A DNA stretch of 23,679 nucleotides. It comes from a virus. Lineage: Duplodnaviria; Heunggongvirae; Uroviricota; Caudoviricetes. Below, piece after piece: positions 2,847 through 16,339 of this stretch. The notes below the pieces were generated by a model. The model searched no databases and was not told the DNA's origin. It was given only the letters and a program-made list of their open reading frames with translations. The stretch lies in the IMG/VR virus record IMGVR_UViG_2671180884_000031, one strand, 5' to 3'. Numbering within the stretch: the first letter of the stretch is position 1; the number at the start of each line of letters is the position of its first letter. A program made the position numbers and the translations under genes.

Positions 2847-5324
2847 TTAAGAATCAGCCTGACTCGGGATCAGTTTTTGCCAGATAACTGAAACGTATTT
2901 TGCCTGGTAACGGGCGTCATCAAGTGCATTATGGCGCTCACCTTCGAATGGAATAGCCGTTCTGGCATCGAAGTCTATGGCTTTCCCCAGCTCAACGATT
3001 GTGCGTACATCGCGATCGTTGTAGTAACGCCACGGGCAGGGGATCCCCTGCCGCTCGTATGAACGGCGCAAAATCGTGTTGTCGAAGTTGGCTCCATTTC
3101 CCCAGACCTGAACAAAAAATTCACCGGAGTTTTCGTCGATAAATTCCCGCAATTGTAACAGTGCATCATCTAACGGGATTTCATCGGTCATAATGGCAGA
3201 TTGCGCTTCGCGTGATTGCTTAAGCCACCATTTAATGGTGTCCCGATCAATGACTCCGCCAGCAGTTTCCAGATCGATAGTCTTACTAAATTCCGGTCCC
3301 ATATCTCCGGTTTGCGGATCGAAAAATATTGCACCTATTGAGATGATCGGGGCATCAGGATTTTTTCCCATGGTTTCAAGGTCGATCATTAGATGGTCAC
3401 ACGTCCTGCTGGTGGATGTGATTTCGTGATGACCGTTCACCTTAATTGAGCGATCTGCCGTCTCGCCAGTTTCATTATCGCTATCGTGATGCTGATTGCC
3501 GCCAGTGTTCTCCTTGTGTGGATGTTCAGCGCCTTCCATTTCCTCCGGATCATCTTCCTGAACTTCAACCTGATACTCTTCATCGAATGTTTCCTGGTAT
3601 GTTGCGTCGCCCATCACCGCGCCACAATCAGGGCAGTTGCCGCCGCCGGTCTGACCGCAGGCGGTGCAGACTTTTTCCACTTCCTGTTGCGCCACTGGTT
3701 CAGGCTGTTTCGTTTCTGGCTCGTTTTGTAACGCATTTGGGCTGTTTTGTTCCGCTTTTTGGTAGTTCCGTTCCGATTCATGCTGGTTCTGGTTCACAGA
3801 ATCGCGGGTCTGGATCCCCTTAACCCATTTCGGATCATTCGGGTCACTAATCCCTTCAACAAATTCACCACGTGATGCAGCAAGCAACTTATCGGCGTCA
3901 GGCTGGCTGATATTGGCTGCCTGCATAATTTTGTTTACTTCGTCAGCGGTAACTTTTATCGGCTCTGGTTGTTCTGAATCTTCAGCGGTATCTACATTTT
4001 GCGGTAAGCCCGTGTATGTGCCATTTTTTCGGGCAAAATATTCTTCTTTTGTGATTTCAGTGGCGCCAGCAGCCAGTGCCTTATCCAGACCAGAAAGTTT
4101 GTTTGCGCGACCGTATTTTTCTCCGTCCTTATCTGCGAAGAGGAAATAGAACGGCCCCTCACGCTCTACAGATGGTTCAGCTTCCGGCGCGGTTTCATTT
4201 TTTGGGATATCAGATACCTCGGTTTCCACTGCATCAGTTTGTGTTTCTGATGACTGGAGAACATCAACAGTGCCCGGGTCTGTTTCTTCATTCTCAAACA
4301 CGCCCTTTGTCGTCAGGTATTCGCAGATATATTTGTTCAGTGCTACGGGATCTTTGTGAATGTCGATCGGACGCTCACGGACAAGGCCAAAAATAGTTTG
4401 GCGGTCGTAGCGAAGGGCATCAGGCTGTTTGCGCATTGATGCCGAGATACGCTTCCAGTCTTCGCGGTCGTTGTCGATAACTTCTTTTTTTGCCCAGCGA
4501 TGGATGCTGCCGTCAATGTTTCCGGCATCCACATCACCAGGCCAGAGAGCGTAGGCCAGTTCGTCATCCAGTGTTTTCCATGTCTGCTTGTATTCGCGAT
4601 GAATGGCAGCAATGACCGGGCTGATTTTTCCTGTTGAATTTTCAGTGTACTGTTGATTGGCTTTGGCGCGGGCGAGATCAACAACAGACGTGTATTTTCC
4701 GGTTTCCTTGCGTTCACCTTCGCGACGTTTTTTCCAGATGCGCATCTCTGCCTGAATTTCGGGCCATTTAGCACCAGGAATACATTTATGCTTAACCCAC
4801 CCAATGGCGTGCAACTTAAGCTCCGGATACATGGCGTTAACTTCTGGCATTTTCATCAACGCTTCAACGATATGTCCGTCGAATGTTGCCATGTCTTCCT
4901 GCAACAATTCCTGTGCGCTAATAACCATATCAACGGTGATGTTTTCACATGTGTCGAACTTAACCATGACAGCGTTCTGTACTTCAGGGGCCAGCTTGTC
5001 AAAAGTGACGTTCATCGGATCGGATTCAGTCTCAACCGGGACAAAAGAAGCAGACTCCTCATCCCAGCGGTTTTCCTGCATATATTCAGCATCCCATGAA
5101 TCGAGGGCAGGGCGGGGTATGCCAGGTTTATCCTCGCAGACAATAAATTTATAAGCGCAGTCCTGAGCAGCCGGATAATGTTCCAGGAACTGCCAGTGAA
5201 ATTTTGCTCGAGCACGGCGTTCGTCGCCAGCTTCAATGGCTGTGGCTACAGCCACAGCCACAGCGCCTTCTTCCCTTGTTGCCAGTTCGTCAGGAATAGC
5301 GGCGCAAATAAAGACTTTACTCAT
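2847..5324 (-). CDS. Prophage exonuclease (RecE/exodeoxyribonuclease VIII-like) with C-terminal DEDDh 3'-5' exonuclease domain
   Basis: 825-aa ORF; the C-terminal ~200 aa carry MIDLETMG (Exo I) and HNALDDARYQAKY (Exo III, H-x4-D); an acidic Q/E-rich middle and a CTACGQTGGGNCPDCG zinc-ribbon-like motif precede it. Sits where K-12 has the ydfE fragment. Confidence 0.6.
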   Translation of the reverse strand: MSKVFICAAIPDELATREEGAVAVAVATAIEAGDERRARAKFHWQFLEHYPAAQDCAYKFIVCEDKPGIPRPALDSWDAEYMQENRWDEESASFVPVETESDPMNVTFDKLAPEVQNAVMVKFDTCENITVDMVISAQELLQEDMATFDGHIVEALMKMPEVNAMYPELKLHAIGWVKHKCIPGAKWPEIQAEMRIWKKRREGERKETGKYTSVVDLARAKANQQYTENSTGKISPVIAAIHREYKQTWKTLDDELAYALWPGDVDAGNIDGSIHRWAKKEVIDNDREDWKRISASMRKQPDALRYDRQTIFGLVRERPIDIHKDPVALNKYICEYLTTKGVFENEETDPGTVDVLQSSETQTDAVETEVSDIPKNETAPEAEPSVEREGPFYFLFADKDGEKYGRANKLSGLDKALAAGATEITKEEYFARKNGTYTGLPQNVDTAEDSEQPEPIKVTADEVNKIMQAANISQPDADKLLAASRGEFVEGISDPNDPKWVKGIQTRDSVNQNQHESERNYQKAEQNSPNALQNEPETKQPEPVAQQEVEKVCTACGQTGGGNCPDCGAVMGDATYQETFDEEYQVEVQEDDPEEMEGAEHPHKENTGGNQHHDSDNETGETADRSIKVNGHHEITSTSRTCDHLMIDLETMGKNPDAPIISIGAIFFDPQTGDMGPEFSKTIDLETAGGVIDRDTIKWWLKQSREAQSAIMTDEIPLDDALLQLREFIDENSGEFFVQVWGNGANFDNTILRRSYERQGIPCPWRYYNDRDVRTIVELGKAIDFDARTAIPFEGERHNALDDARYQAKYVSVIWQKLIPSQADS

Positions 5325-5417
5325 TTTGTTTTAACCTCATGACAGATTTAAGGATGAACAAATCCCTGCCATTGCTGGCATATAAGAATGAAACCGGATA
5401 TTTATTACGGAACTGTT

Positions 5418-5609
5418 TTAAAGACCTGCCGGGATTTCGATATTATCCTGGTGAATAACTTTATCGACCGGGTAACAGTTACCGGGAATTTTCTGTTCGG
5501 TTGCTGCAGTCATACACTCCTGCATTGTCCTGTGAACACTGACTGCAATATCAACTGGCTCTCCGGAAACAAGAAAAACTGTCAGAACAAGCGCAAATGC
5601 TGAATTCAT
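5418..5609 (-). CDS. ydfD: Small lysis/membrane protein YdfD (63 aa)
   Basis: Internal-Met product MNSAFALVLTVFLVSGEPVD... matches recalled YdfD; ATGA start/stop overlap with dicB. Confidence 0.75.
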   Translation of the reverse strand: MNSAFALVLTVFLVSGEPVDIAVSVHRTMQECMTAATEQKIPGNCYPVDKVIHQDNIEIPAGL

Positions 5610-5794
5610 TGTGCACATCCTTTTGGCATCAGACGTAAACGAGCCAGCATTGAAACAATGCATATTTTATTTAATAGCTCCCGTTCTTGTTTTCTCTTGT
5701 TAATGGCATCTTCAGTAAATACAGGGTTACTGATAGTGACACCAATTTCAAAACAACCTTCAGACGTATTAACGTTTGGTAATAACGTTTTCAT
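5606..5794 (-). CDS. dicB: Cell-division inhibitor DicB (62 aa)
   Basis: MKTLLPNVNTSEGCFEIGVTISNPVFTEDAINKRKQERELLNKICIVSMLARLRLMPKGCAQ from ATG at 5794 with a GAGGA SD upstream; matches recalled DicB. Confidence 0.85.
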   Translation of the reverse strand: MKTLLPNVNTSEGCFEIGVTISNPVFTEDAINKRKQERELLNKICIVSMLARLRLMPKGCAQ

Positions 5795-5967
5795 TATCGC
5801 GTCCTCAACAATGAATTTTGTGATGCAGTGCCTGGTGCCTCCAGGTGACGTTAACCAGTTAACAATTAACGCCGGATACAGAGAATCCACCCATAACACT
5901 GTTTTTGGTTTTAACTGTTCCGCGTGCGCTTAGCCGCATTCACCGCATCACAAAATTCACTTTAAAA

Positions 5968-6021
5968 ACGGCGGTAGAGCAGTCACGGAGTAAAACTGAT
6001 ACTGCCAAACGTCACCAGAAA
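5968..6021 (-). ncRNA. dicF: DicF small regulatory RNA (ftsZ-targeting antisense sRNA)
   Basis: Minus strand reads TTTCTGGTGACGTTTGGCAGTATCAGTTTTACTCCGTGACTGCTCTACCGCCGTTTTT, near-identical to recalled K-12 DicF, ending in a GC stem plus T-run; lies ~170 bp upstream of dicB as in K-12. Confidence 0.8.
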
Positions 6022-6052
6022 ATTGATAACAGAGGGCGTTGCAGCGGGGTTG

Positions 6053-6244
6053 TCACTTAAGCGTATGGTCAACCTGACAACTCGGTGTCCTCAACGGGGA
6101 AGGAATAACCCCGCCATACTTACCGCCGCGCCATTTCGCGGGTTGCCACAACCGGAAGCGCACGGTCGAATTAAATTTAACGACACCGTACAGTGAGACG
6201 AACTTCGCCGTGCGCTTTCGTGTTGTGTGCCTGCTTTTAACCAC
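6053..6244 (-). CDS. Hypothetical small basic protein in the ydfC position
   Basis: 63-aa ORF ending ~30 nt upstream of DicF, where K-12 has ydfC; no recognisable sequence features. Confidence 0.2.
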   Translation of the reverse strand: MVKSRHTTRKRTAKFVSLYGVVKFNSTVRFRLWQPAKWRGGKYGGVIPSPLRTPSCQVDHTLK

Positions 6245-6280
6245 GTCAGGCGAGGTGGTATCCTTAAAATCACCACAGTT

Positions 6281-6856
6281 TTAAGGATTCATTAAGCAAT
6301 GTCGCAACCACCAATAAATCCGCTTAAGAACATGAAAATTGATTACTGGTATAAAGCGCTTACAGTTGTTGGCGCTGCGTTGTTTGTCTTTAATGGAACG
6401 TCTTTTTTTGACAGATATCCCGTTGTTCCATTGGGTTTTTTGTCCTCCGGCATCTTTTTTATTGGTTTGGGGGAGTGGATTAATCACCCTCTCAAGGTGA
6501 GATTTATTGGTCCTGGAGTTTGGACTCGTGGATATAATCGTTCTTCGTGCGCACTCGGTATCATCTTCGACATACTTGGTTGTTTCCTGATTGTTACAGG
6601 AGTCGTCAAGTTCTTCTGATGTAAAACCGCAAATGGGGCACGTAACGGGAATTTTGAAAAGCGTTTCTCCGGGTTCCAGAACAAAATTTTCTGCGGTCTG
6701 ATTTTGCTTCTCATATTTGTGCTCCGCGTCATTGTGAGAGCACATTCTTATTCTGAGTGCCTGTTTAAACTCACTGAAGCTGAGAGCTTCTTCGCCTTCG
6801 GCAAGGCCTTCGAAGTATTCTTCGTAAGCCTTTTCCATGATTGTGTCGAAATCCAT
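6281..6856 (-). CDS. YdfB-like protein; 3' extent uncertain (the part at 6281..6619 may be an antisense shadow of the plus-strand membrane ORF)
   Basis: ATG at 6856 sits one nt after the ydfA stop; MDFDTIMEKAYEEYFEGLAEGEEALSFSEFKQAL resembles recalled YdfB (42 aa in K-12), but the frame stays open for 191 codons and includes a CPICGF motif. Confidence 0.35.
   Translation of the reverse strand: MDFDTIMEKAYEEYFEGLAEGEEALSFSEFKQALRIRMCSHNDAEHKYEKQNQTAENFVLEPGETLFKIPVTCPICGFTSEELDDSCNNQETTKYVEDDTECARRTIISTSPNSRTNKSHLERVINPLPQTNKKDAGGQKTQWNNGISVKKRRSIKDKQRSANNCKRFIPVINFHVLKRIYWWLRHCLMNP
6332..6619 (+). CDS. Hypothetical small membrane protein (three predicted TM segments)
   Basis: ORF 6299..6619; from the internal Met: MKIDYWYKALTVVGAALFVFNG...VVPLGFLSSGIFFIGLGEWI...SSCALGIIFDILGCFLIVTGVV. 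Convergent with, and codon-aligned antisense to, the minus-strand ORF 6281..6898, so only one of the two is likely real. Confidence 0.4.
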   Translation: MKIDYWYKALTVVGAALFVFNGTSFFDRYPVVPLGFLSSGIFFIGLGEWINHPLKVRFIGPGVWTRGYNRSSCALGIIFDILGCFLIVTGVVKFF

Positions 6857-6857
6857 A

Positions 6858-7013
6858 TCACTCACCTGAGTTTCTTTCCAGCCAGCGACGGGCACCATTT
6901 TCGGTTTTAAACGTTTTGCTTTTGGTATACGTCATCGCGGTGAACGTGCCGTCCTGGTTGGGGAACACGCCACATACCAGAGATTCGCTGTTGCCAAGAT
7001 CGATAGTATCCAT
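6858..7013 (-). CDS. ydfA: Small prophage protein YdfA (51 aa)
   Basis: MDTIDLGNSESLVCGVFPNQDGTFTAMTYTKSKTFKTENGARRWLERNSGE from ATG at 7013; matches recalled YdfA. Confidence 0.75.
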   Translation of the reverse strand: MDTIDLGNSESLVCGVFPNQDGTFTAMTYTKSKTFKTENGARRWLERNSGE

Positions 7014-7093
7014 GCTGACCTCATTTCCCCTTAACGCCGGGGTGGCGGAACTGTTTGCTGAGAACACCGTGCGGTGTGTTGATGTAAACAAGA

Positions 7094-7107
7094 TTAGCCA
7101 TGACTAA
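7094..7107. promoter_or_regulatory. Candidate DicA operator (TTAG-N6-CTAA palindrome) in the dicB-operon promoter region
   Basis: TTAGCCATGACTAA lies between dicA and ydfA; the same TTAG-N6-CTAA architecture recurs twice in the dicA-dicC intergenic region. Confidence 0.5.
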
Positions 7108-7157
7108 CATATTGGTCAAGTGATTTTGTATGTTATGGCTAACATAATTGATATAAT

Positions 7158-7188
7158 AAAAGATAACTCATTGATGATGTTATCTTTT
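7158..7188 (-). terminator. Candidate intrinsic terminator after dicA
   Basis: Perfect 10-bp inverted repeat AAAAGATAAC / GTTATCTTTT with an 11-nt loop, overlapping the dicA stop codon and followed on the minus strand by an A/T-rich tract. Confidence 0.4.
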
Positions 7189-7587
7189 ATTTGTCCGCTG
7201 ACGGGCTTTTAGTAATTCTTCAAAGAGTTTATTGAAATTTTTTACTCGAGCTCGCATTTCGGCGAGCTGGGTATCCTGTTCTGATTCTGGCAGTGCATTA
7301 AACAGCTCAAGGAGCTCTAGTTCTTTGGGGGCTAAGGCAACCGGCTTCTCAACAGGTGGTGTTGGTTGCTTGTCTTCATCGCCAAATAGAATCCATGTTG
7401 GTGAGCATTGCAATACTTTGCTGAGGGCAAAAAGGTTCTTCCCTGTAGGTTCACTATCATCCCGTTCCCATTGTGATACAGACACATGGGAGATTTTCAG
7501 GGCTTTAGCAAGAGACCTTTGGGTGTGTTTGAGGTTTTTCCGACGATACCTAATGCGTTCGCCGATGGTTAAATTTTTTGTATCCAT
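7180..7587 (-). CDS. dicA: HTH-XRE repressor DicA (135 aa)
   Basis: MDTKNLTIGERIRYRRKNLKHTQRSLAKALKISHVSVSQWERDDSEPTGKNLFALSKVLQCSPTWILFGDE...; XRE-type helix-turn-helix; matches recalled DicA. Confidence 0.85.
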   Translation of the reverse strand: MDTKNLTIGERIRYRRKNLKHTQRSLAKALKISHVSVSQWERDDSEPTGKNLFALSKVLQCSPTWILFGDEDKQPTPPVEKPVALAPKELELLELFNALPESEQDTQLAEMRARVKNFNKLFEELLKARQRTNKR

Positions 7588-7589
7588 AG

Positions 7590-7603
7590 TTAGCTAATGC
7601 TAA
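7590..7603. promoter_or_regulatory. Candidate DicA operator in the dicA-dicC divergent promoter region
   Basis: TTAGCTAATGCTAA (TTAG-N6-CTAA) starts 3 bp upstream of the dicA start codon. Confidence 0.45.
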
Positions 7604-7638
7604 ATCGTATTGACTATGTTTTTGTTAACATCTATTTT

Positions 7639-7654
7639 GTTAGTCATGACTAAC
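7639..7654. promoter_or_regulatory. Candidate DicA operator, perfect 16-bp palindrome
   Basis: GTTAGTCATGACTAAC is its own reverse complement; located 17 bp upstream of dicC. Confidence 0.55.
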
Positions 7655-7670
7655 ATCTAAGGTGTTTTAA

Positions 7671-7901
7671 ATGCTTAAAACTGACGCTCTTTTGTATTTC
7701 GGTTCAAAAACAAAACTTGCACAAGCAGCAGGTATTCGTTTGGCTTCGCTTTATAGCTGGAAAGGGGATTTAGTTCCCGAAGGTCGCGCGATGCGTCTAC
7801 AGGAGGCATCTGGCGGGGAGCTTCAGTATGATCCCAAAGTTTATGACGAATATCGTAAGACGAAGCGGGCGGGGCGGTTGAACAATGAAAATCACTCCTG
7901 A
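7671..7901 (+). CDS. dicC: Cro-like regulator DicC (76 aa)
   Basis: MLKTDALLYFGSKTKLAQAAGIRLASLYSWKGDLVPEGRAMRLQEASGGELQYDPKVYDEYRKTKRAGRL...; divergent from dicA. Confidence 0.8.
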   Translation: MLKTDALLYFGSKTKLAQAAGIRLASLYSWKGDLVPEGRAMRLQEASGGELQYDPKVYDEYRKTKRAGRLNNENHS

Positions 7902-8406
7902 ACAGGCTCGTGAGGCTCTGGATGCCTGGATATGTCGACCAGGAATGACACAGGAGCAGGCGACGATATTAATCACTGAAGCATTCTGGGCTTTGAAAGA
8001 GCGCTCGAACATCGATGTTCAGCGTGTCACATATGAAGGTGGCGCGGTTGATCAGCGAGCGCTTAGCGTTAATCGAGTGAAGATATTTGAACGCTGGAAG
8101 GCTATCGACACCAGGGATAAGCGTGAAAAGTTCACAGCGCTAGTGCCTGCAATTATGGAGGCTATCCGGATTAGTGATTTCAGGTTGTATCGTGAAATTA
8201 GTGACGGAAAGAGCATTACGTACATGATCGCTGGGTTAAATAAAGAATATGGCGATGTGGTGGAGTCCGGACTGCTTTTTGCAGATCCTGCCGTTGTAGA
8301 TCGTGAAACTGACGAACTTATAGAAAAAGCAATTGCTTTCAAGCTTGCGTATCGACAGCAATACCAACAAAAAGCTGGATGGAATTATGAGTCTTCTTTT
8401 TGCTGA
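7885..8406 (+). CDS. YdaT-like prophage protein (CII-like regulator / toxin YdaT family)
   Basis: 173-aa ORF overlapping the dicC 3' end by 17 bp; KREKFTALVPAIMEAIRISDFR resembles the Rac YdaT segment QREKIQKLIPAILAILPRELR. Confidence 0.5.
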   Translation: MKITPEQAREALDAWICRPGMTQEQATILITEAFWALKERSNIDVQRVTYEGGAVDQRALSVNRVKIFERWKAIDTRDKREKFTALVPAIMEAIRISDFRLYREISDGKSITYMIAGLNKEYGDVVESGLLFADPAVVDRETDELIEKAIAFKLAYRQQYQQKAGWNYESSFC

Positions 8407-9352
8407 ACGCCCACTGGTTATAAACACGCAGCTGGCAATGAAAATCGGCTTAAACGAAGCCATTGTTTTGCAACAACTGCACTACTGGTTGAGAGATACC
8501 AACTCCGGTATGGAATGTGATGGTGTTCGCTGGATTTATAACACAACGGAACAATGGCTGGAACAGTTCCCATTCTGGTCAGAGTCAACGTTAAAGCGCG
8601 CGTTTGCAAGTCTGAAAACGCTGGGGCTTTTGCGTTGTGAAAAGCTCAATAAATCAAAGCGCGATATGACCAATTTCTACACGATCAACTATGGGAGCGA
8701 GCTTTTAGATGGTGGCAAATTGAACGAATCCATCGGTTCAAAATGCGCCGCTCCATCAGGTCAAAATGACACGATGGAAGAGGTCAAAATGAAACGCTCC
8801 ATTGGTTCAAAACGACCCAATGTCATCGGGTCAAAATGGCCTGATGATCTTACAGAGAATACAACAGAGATTACTACAGAGAATAAAAACACTTTTCGTC
8901 CGGAAGCTTCGCAACCGGACCCGCAGACGACTGAACAGGATTTTTTAACCCGGAACCCCGACGCGGTTGTGTTTAGTGTGAAAAAACGCCAGTGGGGTAG
9001 CAGGGAGGATTTGGCGTGTGCGCAGTGGATTTGGGGGCGGATCGTGAACCTTTACGAACAGGCTGCCAGCGACGATGGAGAGATCATGCGACCAAAAGAG
9101 CCTAACTGGACAGCCTGGGCCAATGACGTGCGCACAATGCGGATGCTGGATGGCAGAAGCCATAGACAAATTTGCGAAATGTTTGGTCGGGTACAGCGGG
9201 ATCCATTCTGGGTAAAAAACATCATGAGCCCGTCAAAACTCCGCGAAAAATGGGACGAACTGGTCATCCGCCTGGGACGTTCACCTGAACAGCGTTGTGT
9301 GAATCATATTTCTGAACCGGATACAGAAATTCCGCCTGGTTTCAGAGGATAA
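8387..9352 (+). CDS. Phage replication initiation protein (lambda O-like replisome organiser) with internal iteron array
   Basis: ORF 8333..9352 with the likely start at ATG 8387; the N-terminal wHTH-like segment, an SIGSK-repeat middle encoded by DNA iterons, and the position after the cro/cII-like genes all fit an O-like initiator. Confidence 0.55.
   Translation: MSLLFAERPLVINTQLAMKIGLNEAIVLQQLHYWLRDTNSGMECDGVRWIYNTTEQWLEQFPFWSESTLKRAFASLKTLGLLRCEKLNKSKRDMTNFYTINYGSELLDGGKLNESIGSKCAAPSGQNDTMEEVKMKRSIGSKRPNVIGSKWPDDLTENTTEITTENKNTFRPEASQPDPQTTEQDFLTRNPDAVVFSVKKRQWGSREDLACAQWIWGRIVNLYEQAASDDGEIMRPKEPNWTAWANDVRTMRMLDGRSHRQICEMFGRVQRDPFWVKNIMSPSKLREKWDELVIRLGRSPEQRCVNHISEPDTEIPPGFRG
8729..8838. 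repeat. Iteron array, candidate prophage replication origin inside the O-like gene
   Basis: Five direct repeats of ~CATCGGTTCAAAATG at ~23-bp spacing (starting near 8729, 8752, 8777, 8798, 8822), followed by an A-rich ACAGAGA-repeat tract. Confidence 0.6.
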
Positions 9353-9794: not shown

Positions 9795-9897
9795 TGTTAG
9801 GTATTTTAGACGTTACTAGATTAAAAAGCATTAGTTCAGGAGTGAATTGACATTCTCATTTTTCATGGCACAGGGTAGATCTGGCGTGGTTGTCCGC

Positions 9898-9918
9898 TTT
9901 GTGCCAGGAGCGGACGTT
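9898..9918. repeat. att-like repeat copy A (left boundary of cargo module 1)
   Basis: TGTGCCAGGAGCGGACGT (9900..9917) recurs exactly at 12452..12469 and in degenerate form at ~13998..14015. Confidence 0.5.
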
Positions 9919-10007
9919 GCTAATGGCATGATGTATGAACCAATGGAGAACCGATCATCTATACACATATAGATCCCTAACGAAAATATTGTTTTCACTA
10001 GCCCTGT

Positions 10008-10044
10008 AATGGAAGCGTTAATTTTATATTCTAACGCTTCCATT
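10008..10044. repeat. Perfect 13-bp inverted repeat (hairpin) downstream of the SDR gene
   Basis: AATGGAAGCGTTA (10008..10020), 11-nt loop, TAACGCTTCCATT (10032..10044); no flanking U-tract on either strand. Confidence 0.4.
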
Positions 10045-10096
10045 GAGCCTACCACTTTGGCAAAGCAATTCTTACACTTCAAAATAATGTGCTTTT

Positions 10097-10843
10097 TTAT
10101 TCAGCTAAATAACCGCCATCGATTGGATAAACGCCTCCGGTACAGAATGTAGAACTGTCTGACAGCAAGAACAATATGAAGTCTGCTATTTCCTGCATTT
10201 TTGCCATCCTTTTCATAGGGTGGCTATTTGCGAAACTACTTACAATATTTTCAGGGAACTCACTCATTCTTTGGGTTTGGACATAGCCCGGAGCGACTGC
10301 ATTGATTCGAATGCCTTGACATGCAAACTCTAGCGCTGCGGTTTGGGTTAAACCGATTATACCATGTTTAGCCACGGTGTAAGGTGCTAATCCAGGAATG
10401 CCAACCAGACCATTTACTGCAGATAAATTAACTATAGATCCACCAAACTTCATCATCTGGGGTATTTCATATTTTAGGCAGTGAAAAACGCCGCTCAATG
10501 AGGTAGCAATAACCTTATCCCAGTTTTCAACTGTCTGCTCTGTTATATTTTTACCATGTTCACCTGTTAAGCCTGCATTATTTACAGCATAATCAAGTCT
10601 GCCGAAATGTTTGATAACCTCATCTATCATTTGCCGTACTTGTTCGGGCTGTGACACATCACATCCGATCCCCATGGCTTGTTGTCCCTGTGAAGATAAT
10701 TGTTCCGCTTTTTGTTTAGCCTGTTCTGACGAGCGGGATACAATAACAACTTTTGCACCATGCTTATGTAATTGCTCTGCGACGGCCTCACCTATACCTG
10801 TAGTGCTTCCTGTTATAACGGCAATTTTATTCTGGAAATTCAT
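10097..10843 (-). CDS. SDR-family (short-chain dehydrogenase/reductase) oxidoreductase
   Basis: TGSTTGIG cofactor-binding motif, NNAG, catalytic YTVAKHG (YxxxK); start at ATG 10843 with a GGGGGTGG SD. Confidence 0.8.
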   Translation of the reverse strand: MNFQNKIAVITGSTTGIGEAVAEQLHKHGAKVVIVSRSSEQAKQKAEQLSSQGQQAMGIGCDVSQPEQVRQMIDEVIKHFGRLDYAVNNAGLTGEHGKNITEQTVENWDKVIATSLSGVFHCLKYEIPQMMKFGGSIVNLSAVNGLVGIPGLAPYTVAKHGIIGLTQTAALEFACQGIRINAVAPGYVQTQRMSEFPENIVSSFANSHPMKRMAKMQEIADFILFLLSDSSTFCTGGVYPIDGGYLAE

Positions 10844-10914
10844 AACCACCCCCTATGAAGTAGAATTGAGTCTTTCATCTGGGATAGTATACAAACCATC
10901 TGTGACAGTTTTTG

Positions 10915-11604
10915 TCAGTACTCTTTCCCCTCGCAGATCCCTTCTTTTATTCTCCATTTTTTCAATAAAATTGTCCTGCTTTCACTATAGTTGGAGTCAA
11001 GTTGCACAATATCTTCAATTTTGTCAGTTCTAAAATGACGAAAATCATTTCTCATCTCGCACCATGCAACCAAAAGCCAGCACGATTCCATGTATACCAA
11101 TCCGATGGGCCATATGACTCGTGAAGTGTAAGAATCTTTTTTATCACAATAATTTATTTTGATTTTCTTTCTTTTTTTTATAGCATTGCGAATGTCTTCA
11201 AAAAAAATCTCATTGTTTTCTGATGGACCGATCAGATAGGATTGACTCTCAATAAGATTTTTCAATTCACTGGGAATGACGGCGTGTATTTTCGCAAGCG
11301 CATTCTTTGCGGTAATTTTGAAATTATAATCTGTATTGTGCGATACCCAATTTAACCCAAGTGTAATAGCATTAATTTCTTCATGAGAAAGATTTAAGGG
11401 GGGCAAATGAAAGTCAGATTTAACAATATAACCAATTCCAGCACCACCTTCAATGCATACTCCTTGATGCTGCAGCGTTTTTATATCTCTGTAAAGGGAG
11501 CGTACACTTATTCCCAATCTTTCTGAGAGGATGGATGCTGTGATCGGATATCTTTGTGCCCTTAATATTTGTAGTAACTCGAGAAGTCTTTCTGTTCTAG
11601 TCAT
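10915..11604 (-). CDS. YafY-family transcriptional regulator (N-terminal HTH plus WYL-type ligand-binding domain)
   Basis: From the internal Met: MTRTERLLELLQILRAQRYPITASILSERLGISVRSLYRDIKTL..., a DeoR/YafY-type HTH followed by a WYL-like region; directly upstream of and co-oriented with the SDR gene. Confidence 0.6.
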   Translation of the reverse strand: MTRTERLLELLQILRAQRYPITASILSERLGISVRSLYRDIKTLQHQGVCIEGGAGIGYIVKSDFHLPPLNLSHEEINAITLGLNWVSHNTDYNFKITAKNALAKIHAVIPSELKNLIESQSYLIGPSENNEIFFEDIRNAIKKRKKIKINYCDKKDSYTSRVIWPIGLVYMESCWLLVAWCEMRNDFRHFRTDKIEDIVQLDSNYSESRTILLKKWRIKEGICEGKEY

Positions 11605-11822
11605 GTTGATAAATCCATTTTGAGGCGATTTCTTAAAGCATCTGTTAGATAAACATATTAGTACAAAGCAAGTGTACATGGCTAAGCTGAACTGCTACCG
11701 ATGATTAATACAGCGCTATGTTCGTAATGCGTACATAAGCGGTGATCATGAGTGTAAACATCCGCTTTTCGCTTATAAGGGACAACCATACTCAAATTTC
11801 CCACATTGCAGGAGATTTGAGT

Positions 11823-12425
11823 ATGAATACGTCACCGTGGAACAAAGACCGTATCATCGGCCAAAAAAGACCACTTCAGATATCTCATATCTGGGGGATC
11901 CGAATCCGGCTTGAACTGGAAGGTAAAACGCGCGATTTAGCTCTGTTCAATATGGCCCTGGACAGTAAGCTTCGAGGCTGTGATCTGGTCAAACTCAAAG
12001 TATCGGATGTGGCATATGGTAGTTCGGTTTCAAGCAGAGCAACGGTGTTGCAACAGAAAACCGGTAGCCCTGTGCAATTCGAGATAACCAAAGGGACAAG
12101 AGAAGCTGTTGCTGCATTGATAAAGCTTGGCAATTTGCACAGTAAAGACTTCTTGTTTCGGTCTCGGGTCGGAACTAACCAGCACATTTCAACCCGGCAA
12201 TACAACCGAATCTTTCATGGGTGGATAGAAAAACTTGGTCTCGAAGGTTCACTTTACAGCACACATTCAATGAGAAGAACAAAACCTTACCTGATCTACA
12301 AGAAAACCAAGAATCTCCGGGTGATCCAACTTCTGTTGGGTCATAAGAAACTGGAAAGCACAGTCCGTTATCTGGGCATTGAAGTCGATGATGCGTTAGA
12401 GATCTCTGAATCGATTGAAGTCTAA
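11823..12425 (+). CDS. Short tyrosine site-specific recombinase (~200 aa, phage-integrase family catalytic domain)
   Basis: AGGAG SD before ATG 11823; C-terminal HSMRRT...LLGHKKLESTVRYL carries the R/H-x-x-R ... Y catalytic signature. Confidence 0.65.
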   Translation: MNTSPWNKDRIIGQKRPLQISHIWGIRIRLELEGKTRDLALFNMALDSKLRGCDLVKLKVSDVAYGSSVSSRATVLQQKTGSPVQFEITKGTREAVAALIKLGNLHSKDFLFRSRVGTNQHISTRQYNRIFHGWIEKLGLEGSLYSTHSMRRTKPYLIYKKTKNLRVIQLLLGHKKLESTVRYLGIEVDDALEISESIEV

Positions 12426-12433
12426 GGTTGTCA

Positions 12434-12469
12434 GGGCTGCAACAGCAGCCCTGTGCCAGGAGCGGACGT
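12434..12469. repeat. att-like repeat copy B: hairpin GGGCTGC-AACA-GCAGCCC plus TGTGCCAGGAGCGGACGT core
   Basis: Begins 9 nt after the recombinase stop codon; hairpin plus a core identical to copy A. Confidence 0.5.
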
Positions 12470-12576
12470 CTAGTTCGCTGAACCACAAAAAGTCGTTTCT
12501 AGTTATATTACTGGCTCATTAGTATCTTTATGCGATAATATTTCATACAACCAAAATTATGATGAAGGGAGTTCAA

Positions 12577-13698
12577 ATGGCAATTACGGTCTATTCTCGT
12601 ACATTCAAAAAGGAATTGGACATGGTTCAATTGTTAAACCATTACTCATCAGATAACGCACTCAATTTCAGTGATTTCAAGGAATTTGTTGCCTTTGATG
12701 CAGAGTGCCCAATTTGCAATGTAAGCGGTGCGATTGTTGTTTCAGAAGGTTATTCGAAAAGAACAAATAAGATAGTCAGCCAATCTCATTTTGCGTTTAG
12801 AACAAAAGACGGAACTGATGCACACAAAGTATTTTGCGATCATTACAGTGGTGATGATAAGCAAATAGATTCATCAAGGGATGGTTTTATAAAATTCGGC
12901 ACCTCAGGTTCTGAGATTACAAGTATAATTCGCGAGCTTGTATGTAGAGGTATTGAACATGATGAGTTCAATCAGGAAGATATTCGAAACATGCGGCAAT
13001 GGTTTACAGAATTACGCCAGTCAGGCACTTTTTCTGTTAACTATAGCCCTCACATGATCAATCTAATAAGGGCCAGCATGTATTCCCGTAAGGGAGAAAG
13101 TAAATATATTGTAGATGAAGAGAGGAAAAATAAATCTTGGTTTGATATAAACGATGAAGTGTATCGTTCGTTAAGATTCAAATATCCATCATTGATGATC
13201 GACATGACTAATGAAAATAATTCTGTTTTCTATAATCTTGTGAATAGTACCACATTTACTAAACAAGCACATCGATTAGTAGCACGAGATCGAGGTTATC
13301 AGGTTTATGATAGAAGGTTGCTTAAAGAAAAATATGAAGCAACGATAAGAGTTGCACAAAAAATAACCAGGCATCACGAATTTCTTTTTAGGAAAATCAG
13401 GGGTATATCCGCTGTTAAAAAAAACAACCCCCTTTTGGCTGTATCTGCCTTGCTTCTTTTTGTCTCGGACTGGAATGAAACAACTGCAATCAACAAATTC
13501 ATCAAATTGTGTGGTGTAGGGAAATCTAAAAATAATGATGAGGGGAATGTAATTGGCTTAAATCCCTTTATTCATTACGATGTCTGGAATGTTATTCATC
13601 AACTTAAGGATTTAATGGTTACACTTCCAGACTTCTCAAATCTTGATGAAGAATTTGACAGAGAAAAATCCAGATTAATTGAACTTTACAAGCTCTAA
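12577..13698 (+). CDS. Hypothetical protein, 373 aa, AT-rich cargo gene; candidate accessory/anti-phage function
   Basis: GAAGGGAG SD 5 nt before ATG 12577; N-terminal CPIC ... HKVFCDH cluster suggests a metal-binding site; no family recognised by eye. Confidence 0.7.
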   Translation: MAITVYSRTFKKELDMVQLLNHYSSDNALNFSDFKEFVAFDAECPICNVSGAIVVSEGYSKRTNKIVSQSHFAFRTKDGTDAHKVFCDHYSGDDKQIDSSRDGFIKFGTSGSEITSIIRELVCRGIEHDEFNQEDIRNMRQWFTELRQSGTFSVNYSPHMINLIRASMYSRKGESKYIVDEERKNKSWFDINDEVYRSLRFKYPSLMIDMTNENNSVFYNLVNSTTFTKQAHRLVARDRGYQVYDRRLLKEKYEATIRVAQKITRHHEFLFRKIRGISAVKKNNPLLAVSALLLFVSDWNETTAINKFIKLCGVGKSKNNDEGNVIGLNPFIHYDVWNVIHQLKDLMVTLPDFSNLDEEFDREKSRLIELYKL

Positions 13699-13740
13699 CA
13701 TAAACTAGCAGGCTGCGTATACAGTCTGCTAATTTTCATA

Positions 13741-13970
13741 GTAAAGACTTCATGCTTCAGTCTCGAGTTGGAGCTATCCGTCACACATCACCCAGGCAAT
13801 TCAACCGAAATTTTTCATGGGGGGTAGAGAAGTTTTGTCTCGAAGATTTGCTTTACAGCATACTAATCATTGAACCTCTGTTGAACCATAAGAAACTGGC
13901 AAGCACAATCCGTTGCTTGGGCATTGAATTCGACGATGCGTCGTATAGCTCTGACTTGAACAAAACATAA
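13741..13970 (+). pseudogene. Degenerate duplicate of the tyrosine recombinase 3' end (remnant)
   Basis: About 75-80% nucleotide identity to 12142..12425 with an internal deletion; translation ...SRVGAIRHTSPRQFNRNF...LLNHKKLASTIRCLGIEFDDA parallels the recombinase C-terminus. Confidence 0.6.
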
Positions 13971-13978
13971 GGTTTTTA

Positions 13979-14015
13979 GGGCTGCAACAGCACCTCTGTG
14001 TCATAGGCGGAAGTT
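13979..14015. repeat. att-like repeat copy C (degenerate)
   Basis: GGGCTGCAACAGCACCTCTGTGTCATAGGCGGAAGT parallels copy B in the same position relative to the recombinase remnant. Confidence 0.45.
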
Positions 14016-14311
14016 AACAAACATTAAAATCTCTAAATCTGTAGGGATCAGACTCCTTCTATAAAAGGATACTGTTCATATCCTTAGTTGTATATAGGTG
14101 TGTTTAGAGTATTAGGATGCTAGTTTTGAAAATTAATTTTTTAAACATATTGAATTTTTTAAGAATTGGGAATAGTGTATAGCTTTGTCATGGCGGATTT
14201 TTTCTCTTCAAGTATTTATTTGAACACTACTTCTTGCACCTGCAAGGTTACAATATCGTGTAAATTTGTTCACAAAGACATAGATTATAATTTTTACTTA
14301 AAGGAAATTCA

Positions 14312-15565
14312 ATGTCAAAAAATCTCCCGGTTTTATTAAGCTCGCCATCAACAACTAATTTTCCTGCAACAGTTAATACTGAAATAGAATTCCTTTCGCA
14401 AGCTAGAAAGTTGTTAGATTCTGGCTTCCCTGATCATGCTCTTTTAGATATATGGAATGCATCCATTCATAATCTTAGGCGGCGAATTGAGGCTTATGGT
14501 TTAGACTTATTCCTTTCCGCAATAAAGGATGATAGTGGTCGTAAAAAATATGATAAAGATGGTGAAACAATAAACGAGAGATGGTCAGGTGTAGATGATT
14601 TAGTGCTAATAAGTGGAGCCACCAAATTAGGGGTTCTGCATAAGAAAGCTGGAAAATCATTAGAAATGATCAATTGGATGAGAAACCATGCCTCTCCAGC
14701 CCATGCAAGTGATAGTAAAGTAGAGTCTGAGGATGTGTTTGCTTTGGCTCTTATGCTCCAGAAGAATTTATTCGAATCTGATATGCCAGACCCTGGACAT
14801 TCGCCATCTGGATTATTTGAACCCATAAAAAAATCTGAACTATCAATTGAGAGCATAGACTTACTTAAAGATCAAATAAGAGCATTTAAGCAAGCTGATA
14901 TAAGAATAACATTTGGATTTTTATTGGATTTAATAACTAAGGGGGAAAATCCTGCTTATGTTAATGCTAGCAAGTTGTTTGAACAAGCATGGGAAAGATC
15001 TAATGATGACCTTAAAAAAACAGCGGGGGAAAGATATCACTCATTTATGCTGGAGCCCGAATCGGATACAAGTGAGGATAAAGGAGCAAAAATAAGAATT
15101 TTAGAGACTTTAGTAAAAGTTAATGGTGTGAAATTTATACCTGATGCTGCTAGGGCAAGTTTATACAGACATGCGGTTAAACAGCTAGCTAAAGCTAAGG
15201 ATACATCTTACGGCTGGAATGATGAAGAAAGAGCAGCCAAGGCACTTATACAATTTGGACCTCATGTTCCATCTATTGCTTTTGAAGATGTATATCAAGA
15301 AATACTTACTGTTTGGGTGGGGAATTACTGGGGAAGATCTGATGCACATTTAGTACTTCAACCATTTTTAGATGTGTTAAATAGTAATCAATTGATGGCT
15401 CTCTCACGGTTGTTCGTGGAGAATGAAAGAGCAAATTCAGAACTGGTGTCATCAAGGCCCAAAAGAAGAGCAATAGAATTACTTGAGATAATAAAAAATA
15501 ATCTAACAATTCAAGCAAGCATTGATGAAATTGATAGGATTATTTCTGAAATTGATAAAATGTAA
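14312..15565 (+). CDS. Hypothetical protein, 417 aa, with HEPN-like R-x6-H motif; candidate abortive-infection/defence protein
   Basis: AAGGAAA SD before ATG 14312; helical N-terminal region with WMRNHASPAH (R-x6-H) resembling the HEPN active-site motif; AT-rich; own terminator downstream. Confidence 0.7.
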   Translation: MSKNLPVLLSSPSTTNFPATVNTEIEFLSQARKLLDSGFPDHALLDIWNASIHNLRRRIEAYGLDLFLSAIKDDSGRKKYDKDGETINERWSGVDDLVLISGATKLGVLHKKAGKSLEMINWMRNHASPAHASDSKVESEDVFALALMLQKNLFESDMPDPGHSPSGLFEPIKKSELSIESIDLLKDQIRAFKQADIRITFGFLLDLITKGENPAYVNASKLFEQAWERSNDDLKKTAGERYHSFMLEPESDTSEDKGAKIRILETLVKVNGVKFIPDAARASLYRHAVKQLAKAKDTSYGWNDEERAAKALIQFGPHVPSIAFEDVYQEILTVWVGNYWGRSDAHLVLQPFLDVLNSNQLMALSRLFVENERANSELVSSRPKRRAIELLEIIKNNLTIQASIDEIDRIISEIDKM

Positions 15566-15577
15566 TTTATTTGCAAT

Positions 15578-15610
15578 TAAGCCATGCTTTTTAGGTGGCT
15601 TATTTTTTTT
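15578..15610 (+). terminator. Rho-independent terminator after the 417-aa gene
   Basis: AAGCCA ... TGGCTT stem followed by an 8-T run, 13 nt after the stop codon. Confidence 0.55.
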
Positions 15611-15882
15611 GAATCTACTACTTATATTGATATTAGCAATGTAATTGCTAAAGTATTCCTAGCCCACTATTCATCTAAATATGGTTGTCGAAAGGCCCGC
15701 TTCTCGCTCAAAGCGGACTAGAAGGTTAGCTTGTGTCGGACTTTGCGTATTAAATGACTAGTGGTTGAGCCCCATTTCCACAGAAAAAATCAGAGAAACT
15801 ATACCCAATAGTTGTATTGAATCACTGACGAGACAGCCTCATATTCATCAGGACTGGTGTACGTCCAATACAGGAGGTTGTG

Positions 15883-15972: not shown

Positions 15973-16183
15973 TTTCACATTGGCGAGGTAACGGTAGTTA
16001 AGTAGAATGGCTGCGGGTGCTTGAGGCTATCTGCCTCGGGCATGAACACCAACGGCAGATAGAGAAAAGCCCCAGTTAACATTACGCGTCCTGCAAGACG
16101 CTTAACATTAATCTGAGGCCAATTTCATGCTAGACATATGTAGGTTAGCCTCTTACGTGCCGAAAGGCAAGGAGAAGCAGGCT

Positions 16184-16339
16184 ATGAAGCAGCAAAAGGC
16201 GATGTTAATCGCCCTGATCGTCATCTGTTTAACCGTCATAGTGACGGCACTGGTAACGAGGAAAGACCTCTGCGAGGTACGAATCCGAACCGGCCAGACG
16301 GAGGTCGCTGTCTTCACAGCTTACGAACCTGAGGAGTAA
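16184..16339 (+). CDS. hokD: Hok-family small membrane toxin HokD (RelF)
   Basis: MKQQKAMLIALIVICLTVIVTALVTRKDLCEVRIRTGQTEVAVFTAYEPEE matches recalled HokD; AAGGAGAA SD; an in-frame upstream ATG at 16127 could give an extended form. Confidence 0.8.
   Translation: MKQQKAMLIALIVICLTVIVTALVTRKDLCEVRIRTGQTEVAVFTAYEPEE

Follow-up and report, generated by a model that had tools for sequence, protein, structure and literature searches.

Gene content and expression signals

The window analysed here, a stretch of 23,679 nucleotides (nt) of viral DNA (Caudoviricetes; IMG/VR record IMGVR_UViG_2671180884_000031), is a Qin-like lambdoid prophage at the rspB/ynfA locus of Escherichia coli, and the subject of this analysis is a gene on its + strand that encodes a 417-amino-acid (aa) protein with a predicted N-terminal HEPN domain. 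The open reading frame (ORF) spans positions 14312..15565, with an ATG start and a TAA stop, and has coordinates identical to those of RefSeq protein WP_000042049.1, which is labelled a hypothetical protein in the Shiga-toxin-producing E. coli (STEC) strain 2012EL-2448. The gene sits between the DUF977 gene of the replication region and the hokD/sok and rem/ydfU genes. The slot between the replication region and hokD/rem is an accessory site of lambdoid phages for morons.

The ratio of non-synonymous to synonymous substitution rates (dN/dS) of the ORF was 0.088 against the Providencia copy and 0.054 against the Psychrobacter copy, and because of these low values it is a real gene under strong purifying selection. 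An earlier interpretation made from the letters of the DNA (hereafter the sequence-only reading) had described an AT-rich 417-aa ORF of unknown function with a promoter-like upstream region and a hairpin plus T8 terminator at 15578..15610, and most of this description was borne out. The ORF was recovered as given above, and its GC content is 36.1 %, within a region (13.5–15.5 kb) of 0.34–0.37 that gives way to 0.45–0.50 further downstream. RNA folding likewise recovered the intrinsic terminator (+ strand), comprising a bulged 10-bp hairpin at 15578–15602 (dG −9.9 to −12.2 kcal/mol, z −1.8) followed by U8 at 15603–15610; it was missed by a simple scanner because the hairpin has a bulge.

The promoter claim stood in part. 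A perfect possible −10 hexamer, TATAAT, is present on the + strand at 14286–14291 and a Shine–Dalgarno sequence, AAGGA, at 14301–14305, six bases 5′ of the ATG, and the DNA of the region 14286..14305 is partly kept in the Providencia copy. The hexamer has no acceptable −35 element, no + strand promoter 5′ of the ORF was called by the consensus scan, and the number of sigma-70-like promoter matches in the region (9) showed no excess over shuffled sequence (7.9 ± 3.1). Two overlapping sigma-70-like matches (10/12) are located on the − strand at 14284–14318, at the start codon and facing away from the gene.

Predicted HEPN domain and active-site motif

Residues ~20–155 of the protein (14369..14776, + strand) very probably fold as a HEPN domain, as judged from structure prediction. 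The four-helix core of the predicted structure, formed by two alpha-hairpins (helix-1, residues 22–36; helix-2, 40–62; helix-3, 111–126; helix-4, 139–154), matches solved HEPN domains. Helix-2 and helix-3 are separated by a 43-residue insert (64–106) of short helices and a beta-bridge, and helix-3 and helix-4 by a loop (127–138). The top structural matches include HepT toxins of type VII toxin–antitoxin systems (5yep_B, 8xdj and 7ae2), and the minimal HEPN proteins 2hsb, 1jog, 1wwp and 1wol are also among the closest known relatives. With the full-length model, generic helical repeats scored nearly as high as HEPN.

The predicted RNase active-site residues are R124, N125 and H131, which form an R-N-x5-H motif at 14681..14704 (+ strand). 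They fall within WMRNHASPAH (residues 122–131, nt 14675–14704), where the sequence-only reading had recognized an R-x6-H signature; the signature is present as described, with a spacer of six residues between R124 and H131. That reading had also cautioned that its HEPN call rested on a short motif, and the caution was justified, since 80 % of shuffles of the 417-aa protein contain an Rx4-6H match (mean 1.5 per shuffle) and the motif by itself is therefore not above chance. A second Rx4-6H match in the protein, R281–H287, was rejected as an active motif as H287 varies among members.

Among the motif-bearing members R124, N125 and H131 are invariant (41/41), and together with W48 they are the only invariant columns of the N-terminal domain in that set, in which H126 varies. 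N125 is invariant in alignment A3 and occurs in 31/35 sequences of alignment A2. In a deliberately divergent alignment (17–56 % identity) the family-wide form of the motif is RNxx[ST]xAH, and in the core-clade alignment the block L117–H131 is essentially invariant. The C-terminal end of helix-3 holds R124 and N125, the loop before helix-4 holds H131, and N125 provides the polar residue directly after the conserved arginine that is expected in HEPN domains. The acidic Ex3[KR] motif in helix-2, found in many, though not all, HEPN families, is seen here only as a degenerate [NDE]x3[RK] (N54...R58 in the 417-aa protein), with N/D/E at position 54 in 33/41 sequences and R/K at position 58 in 37/41. 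The sequence-only reading had proposed structure prediction as a check, and with the N-terminal part predicted as a HEPN fold, the HEPN assignment now has a considerably stronger basis than the motif alone. HEPN domains that keep the motif have been argued to be RNases (PMC3710099), and the domain is likely to be catalytically competent.

Similarity to known families

At an E threshold of 1, neither the 417-aa protein nor 10 divergent members of its family had a match in Pfam, NCBIfam or PADLOC. No HEPN-clan match was obtained when 35 divergent members were compared with Pfam by hmmscan, and PADLOC v2 (including the HEC and PDC candidates) gave 0 matches for the protein and one spurious SspE match (E 0.008) for the 35 members. 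Sequence searches of the PDB returned nothing relevant, whether the query was the protein itself or the family profile. The only match in PHROGs was phrog_27609, of unknown function, and the viral structure library BFVD gave no match at E of 0.001 or less and only a weak TPR/Sel1-like resemblance.

The family was also aligned by hhalign with a DUF4145 (PF13643) profile built from the N-terminus of the HsdR protein adjoining the Lachnobacterium homologue described below. This gave a score of 27.3 (P 8e-4, probability 24.7 %) for a local match over helix-3 and the motif, in which N125 and H131 are paired with GN..AAH of DUF4145 and the motif arginine is offset. The controls scored 12.4 for the C-terminal domain, 10.1 for the reversed profile and 13.2 ± 2.9 (maximum 21.5) for 60 column shuffles. 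As a profile-level comparison, the match is supportive, not decisive. The profile search suggested by the sequence-only reading gave no HEPN-clan match by hmmscan and a local match scoring above all controls by hhalign. A confident match to an unrelated family, which that reading had named as evidence against a HEPN assignment, did not emerge from the Pfam, NCBIfam, PADLOC or PDB sequence searches, and the protein was not found in the main text of the literature or in the DefensePredictor supplements.

C-terminal domain

The remainder of the protein (residues ~165–417; 14804..15562, + strand) is predicted to form an all-alpha domain of about 15 helices. It has no Pfam or PDB sequence match, and its structural matches are generic solenoids only (DHR, TOG/HEAT and TPR/Sel1). 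Seven of its residues (N218, W227, E305, P320, G337, N338 and G341) are kept family-wide, including in a branch of the family without the N-terminal motif. No fusion of the domain to other effectors was seen, and the partial profile matches share the same architecture.

Distribution and conservation of the family

A total of 435 relatives were found by word-indexed homology search and 421 representatives at 50 % identity by exhaustive profile search, none of the latter having a name or a Pfam assignment. In the core clade the length is always 417 aa, identity is 57–94 % and mean column identity is 68 %, and the hosts are Providencia, Vibrio, Photobacterium, Acinetobacter, Burkholderia, Pseudomonas, Cyanobium and Lentisphaerota. 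A species-level genome scan added Bacteroidota, Acidobacteriota, Chloroflexota, Spirochaetota, Firmicutes, Bradymonadota and three lineages of the Candidate Phyla Radiation (CPR), all at 48 % identity or more. A Serratia copy is 100 % identical. Carriers include STEC prophages and islands of Providencia, Serratia and Vibrio, and IncY and other plasmids carry the family as a distant paralogue. The family was not found in 50,697 isolated phage genomes. A fixed 417 aa and at least 48 % identity across over ten phyla including CPR amount to a degree of conservation that is unusual in mobile accessory genes.

In one deep branch of the family (members P0235, P0241, P0246, P0256, P0261, P0266, P0248, P0185 and P0263), R124 and H131 have been lost, and N125–H126 (as xxNH[YF]) and all conserved residues of the C-terminal domain have been kept. 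This pattern of sequence conservation suggests an alternative active site or a non-catalytic role in this branch.

Genomic context of the homologues

In Pseudomonas viridiflava, Photobacterium and Cyanobium, the homologues occupy accessory slots of prophages. Those of Pseudomonas and Photobacterium are co-oriented with early and late genes, and that of Cyanobium lies between the portal and terminase genes on the strand opposite to the structural genes. Most homologue loci are not prophages. The Providencia homologues are at the cargo end of CP4-type islands, and several loci have ordinary housekeeping flanks. Type I restriction–modification (R-M) genes occur no more than 6 kb from the homologue in four independent lineages; the Lentisphaerae homologue is directly after hsdR and adjoins an integrase, the Lachnobacterium homologue lies between hsdS and hsdR, and the Lujinxingia homologue follows hsdM. 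The Syntrophales homologue follows GmrSD, and other neighbours are IS91 with an integrase, a large serine recombinase, a conjugative coupling protein and a Schlafen-AlbA2 protein. The HsdR beside the Lachnobacterium homologue (locus L040, 7264–10569) itself has an N-terminal DUF4145 domain, of the HEPN clan, so that two different HEPN-type modules are present in one type I R-M operon.

To identify possible partners, 943 flanking ORFs from 36 loci were clustered, and no recurrent neighbour family other than integrases was found; an adjacent antitoxin gene was rejected on this basis. A two-gene system with the 379-aa gene upstream (12559–13698, + strand) was also rejected, as no non-enterobacterial locus contains that gene; it ends in a terminator of its own at 13706–13731, and a decayed integrase copy lies between the two genes. 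An RNA antitoxin or regulatory RNA encoded in cis is improbable, the upstream DNA being conserved only between E. coli and Providencia and the only Rfam match being the sok of hokD. This hokD/sok type I toxin–antitoxin module (16015–16339; Rfam sok, 112.7 bits; Hok ORF inside 16127–16339) is directly downstream of the island in which the gene is located. The gene for the 417-aa protein is a solo gene.

Cassette, recombination sites and island

The gene is contained in a mobile single-gene cassette of 1.7 kb (14010..15718, + strand) that consists of a leader of ~300 nt, the ORF, the terminator and a tail of ~100 nt. The unit was defined in this way because Providencia islands share only 14010–15714 with this locus, at 84 % nt identity and in different flanks, which upholds the autonomous cassette that the sequence-only reading had proposed. 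At its left edge, directly after the decayed integrase 3′ end, lies the degenerate recombination core TGTCATAGGCGGAA (13999..14012, + strand). At its right end lies the palindromic site GCCCGCT-TCTCGCTCAA-AGCGGAC (15695..15718, + strand), immediately after which the prophage backbone resumes. A further 24-nt palindrome, GTCCGCT-TTGTGCCAGG-AGCGGAC, was found at 9892–9915. The two 24-nt sites therefore define a 5.8-kb island (9892–15718) bounded by direct sites, of which the HEPN cassette is the fourth and last module. The 24-nt site is made up of 7-bp arms and a 10-nt spacer, and another strain shows compensatory changes in the arms (GTCTGCT...AGCAGAC). Exact copies of TGCCAGGAGCGGAC are present at 9902 and 12454 (12454–12467), and the core copies of the island fall at module junctions.

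The second module of the island is a tyrosine recombinase of 200 aa (WP_024178309.1; 11823–12425, + strand; Pfam Phage_integrase), which consists of little more than a catalytic domain. After its stop codon come the hairpin GGGCTGC-AACA-GCAGCCC and then the recombination core. The junctions have a core in common, as each integrase 3′ end leads into a hairpin and then TGTGCCAnnAGCGGAC, and the same core bounds cassettes in unrelated flanks. The decayed integrase 3′ end and its downstream flank (13719–14014), between the 379-aa gene and the HEPN cassette, have 74–77 % nt identity to 12120–12469 and contain an ORF (13752–13970) that is 43 % identical as protein. An IncY plasmid carries an integrase 95 % identical to the 200-aa recombinase, adjoining a 476-aa distant relative of the HEPN protein, and in Serratia a 99.5 % identical integrase is encoded downstream of the gene pair.

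The slot contains another one-gene cassette in strain R1, flanked on both sides by the same site and then by the same backbone, and queH in many other strains. Some cargo filled the slot in every strain compared, and no strictly empty attachment site was found. The 24-nt site is present on at least 120 viral contigs, and the first ORF downstream of it fell into 52 clusters among 90 loci. The site marks a slot of prophages that is hypervariable. Overall, the island looks like an integron-like platform with self-expressed cassettes, and no description of such a cassette platform was found in the literature.

Comparison with known HEPN systems

At the fold level, the predicted model of the 417-aa protein agrees with both the structure and the motif of HEPN domains. 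By sequence comparison it appears to fall outside the HepT/MntA, HepS, PrrC/RloC, DUF4145, DUF3644/HEC-08 and Abi families and the PADLOC models. HepS (PDB 9oik) is the ‘HEPN Solo’ abortive-infection protein of the Gifsy-1 prophage; its gene is part of a lambdoid prophage's accessory region. HepS lacks an inhibitory partner; inactive by default, it is switched on by a tail-tip protein and cuts tRNA anticodon loops (PMC13043305). HepS has 218 aa, an R-x4-H motif (R100–H105) and no 250-residue C-terminal domain, whereas the 417-aa protein has R-x6-H and that domain; no sequence similarity is detectable between the two, with no PDB match at E up to 10. HEC-08 resembles the 417-aa protein in being a single-gene system, in combining an N-terminal HEPN domain with a C-terminal domain whose fold is unknown and in occurring within other defence systems; SO_3166 (5yep), its structural match, is also among the top matches here. 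Mutation of the motif histidine of HEC-08 abolishes defence (bioRxiv 10.1101/2024.01.29.577857). HEC-08 is a member of Pfam DUF3644 with zinc-ribbon-like modules at the C-terminus, whereas the 417-aa family has no Pfam or PADLOC match and an all-alpha C-terminal domain.

The HepT/MntA HEPN toxins and the minimal HEPN proteins are about 120–140 aa long and are paired with an adjacent MNT nucleotidyltransferase antitoxin; no adjacent MNT nucleotidyltransferase gene was found in the 36 loci or the annotated contexts. PrrC and RloC are abortive-infection effectors of the HEPN RNase type, and PrrC is encoded in a type I hsd operon (PMC3710099). The Lachnobacterium homologue is similarly placed in an hsd operon, and hsd genes adjoin homologues in three other lineages. 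In PrrC and RloC an ABC-type ATPase is N-terminal and the HEPN domain C-terminal, whereas the 417-aa protein has the opposite order and no NTPase domain according to Pfam, NCBIfam and PADLOC. DUF4145 (PF13643), Abi_2/AbiD-F, AbiU2, AbiJ and AbiV are likewise defence-island HEPN families with an R/N...H motif, but hmmscan gave no match to them at E of 1 or less, the DUF4145 hhalign result being the sole sequence-level signal. The combination of an R-x6-H HEPN domain bearing a 43-residue insert with an uncharacterized 250-residue domain, at fixed length across phyla, represents a new form within a known class of proteins.

Proposed function and alternatives

By analogy with characterized solo HEPN defences, the gene most likely encodes a new single-gene abortive-infection RNase. 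In the proposed mechanism, residues ~20–155 would form a HEPN domain in which R124, N125 and H131 constitute a metal-independent RNase active site, and residues ~165–417 would most likely hold the nuclease inactive and sense an invader-derived cue. Upon activation, two HEPN domains would pair to create a composite catalytic site, as in the characterized solo systems. The active dimer would then cut cellular RNA, leaving 2′,3′-cyclic phosphate ends, and this cleavage would stop translation and so abort the infection or the incoming element. The commonest RNA target of the solo HEPN class is tRNA anticodon loops. Site-specific recombination would place the 1.7-kb cassette itself in variable slots on prophages, plasmids and islands. 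We infer the RNase activity, the dimerization, the autoinhibition and sensing by the C-terminal domain, the RNA target and the defence phenotype. A two-domain solo HEPN RNase that serves in defence and moves as a cassette is the best explanation overall and one that we consider moderately probable; a role of the protein in defence, taken separately, is on balance favoured from its genomic context, as the cassette occurs in slots that in other genomes contain anti-phage genes.

A further, joint proposal is that the C-terminal domain is a new sensor or regulatory module and that the gene is carried as cargo by a cassette platform of which the literature yielded no description, and this is put forward tentatively, as rather doubtful. 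If the domain is a sensor, its target would be highly conserved in cells or invaders, which would explain the fixed 417 aa and the identity of at least 48 % across more than ten phyla including CPR. If the platform is real, the 200-aa recombinase and the 24-nt site would allow prophages, plasmids and islands to exchange self-expressed cassettes of one gene each. Many of these cassettes would be defence-like, and the platform would work as an integron does, but with promoter-bearing cassettes.

Several other functions were weighed. The protein could be an addiction or stabilization toxin, that is, a HEPN RNase restrained by an unrecognized antitoxin (its own fused C-terminal domain, a host factor, or a small unannotated ORF or RNA) and stabilizing the mobile elements that carry it. 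The gene is always on mobile elements and adjoins a hok/sok addiction module here, the HepT toxins 5yep_B, 8xdj and 7ae2 are among the best structural matches, and fused MNT–HEPN systems exist (PMC13000451). However, neither MNT nor any other conserved neighbour is present in the 36 loci, no non-coding element up- or downstream is conserved beyond close relatives, Rfam gave no antitoxin except the unrelated sok, and the C-terminal domain shows no nucleotidyltransferase similarity, all of which make this role rather improbable. It is improbable, too, that the HEPN domain is a non-catalytic RNA or nucleotide binder, as in sacsin, Roquin and the nucleotidyltransferase-associated HEPN proteins, with the real activity in the C-terminal domain and the protein acting as a regulator or adaptor. 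Invariance of the R, N and H in 41/41 motif-bearing members argues against such a binder, given that motif-keeping HEPN domains are argued to be RNases (PMC3710099), and the C-terminal domain resembles no enzyme.

The gene may instead serve the prophage or element and not the host, through superinfection exclusion by another route, host RNA remodelling at induction or counter-defence. Its place in the early-region accessory slot of lambdoid prophages, its co-orientation with early and late genes in Pseudomonas and Photobacterium and the match to phrog_27609, of unknown function, are compatible with this; set against them, most loci are not prophages, the Cyanobium copy is on the strand opposite to the structural genes and the family is absent from the 50,697 isolated phage genomes, and we regard such a role as distinctly unlikely. 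That the motif arose by chance in an unrelated helical protein with no HEPN domain is very improbable, even allowing for the frequency of Rx4-6H in shuffles (80 %), the lack of a HEPN hidden Markov model match and the near-equal scores of generic helical repeats against the full-length model.

If the abortive-infection RNase is confirmed, a widespread and wholly unannotated family would join the solo HEPN abortive-infection nucleases, of which to our knowledge only few have been characterized, HepS and HEC-08 among them. As no current annotation or defence-finding model detects the family, it would count among the hidden components of bacterial immunity. The C-terminal domain may be a new kind of sensor, the trigger of which could show a new way in which cells recognize invaders, and the unusual conservation makes the family easy to work with, since any homologue should behave alike. 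The recombination site, with at least 52 cargo types in its slot, offers a simple sequence handle for harvesting accessory and defence genes. Another predicted HEPN defence gene is unsurprising in itself; what is unusual is the invisibility to current models, the extreme conservation and the cassette platform.

Other modules of the island and cargo of the slot

The first module of the island is on the − strand and comprises an SDR oxidoreductase gene (10097–10849) and a helix–turn–helix WYL regulator gene (10915–11679; PADLOC WYL, 3.8e-61). WYL regulators are often found alongside defence systems. The third module is the 379-aa gene together with the integrase remnant. The product of the 379-aa gene is of unknown function; it matches phrog_12525 and has no match in Pfam, NCBIfam or PADLOC. 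DNA related to this gene, adjoining an integrase that is often partial, was found in 1636/5426 complete E. coli genomes, and the gene may belong to the integrase module instead of being cargo.

Among the ORFs found downstream of the 24-nt site are those for a TIR-like protein (locus L072), a 527-aa protein without a PDB relative (L083) and a 763-aa Rad50-type ABC ATPase with a CxxC hook and an RloC-like look (L089). In E. coli SF-468 (3405–8864) the slot comes after a 373-aa gene and an integrase remnant. It contains the gene for a DUF4365 protein with a match to the PADLOC model for pAgo-associated restriction endonucleases (8.5e-22), and a dCTP-deaminase defence gene (5e-127) lies just upstream of it.
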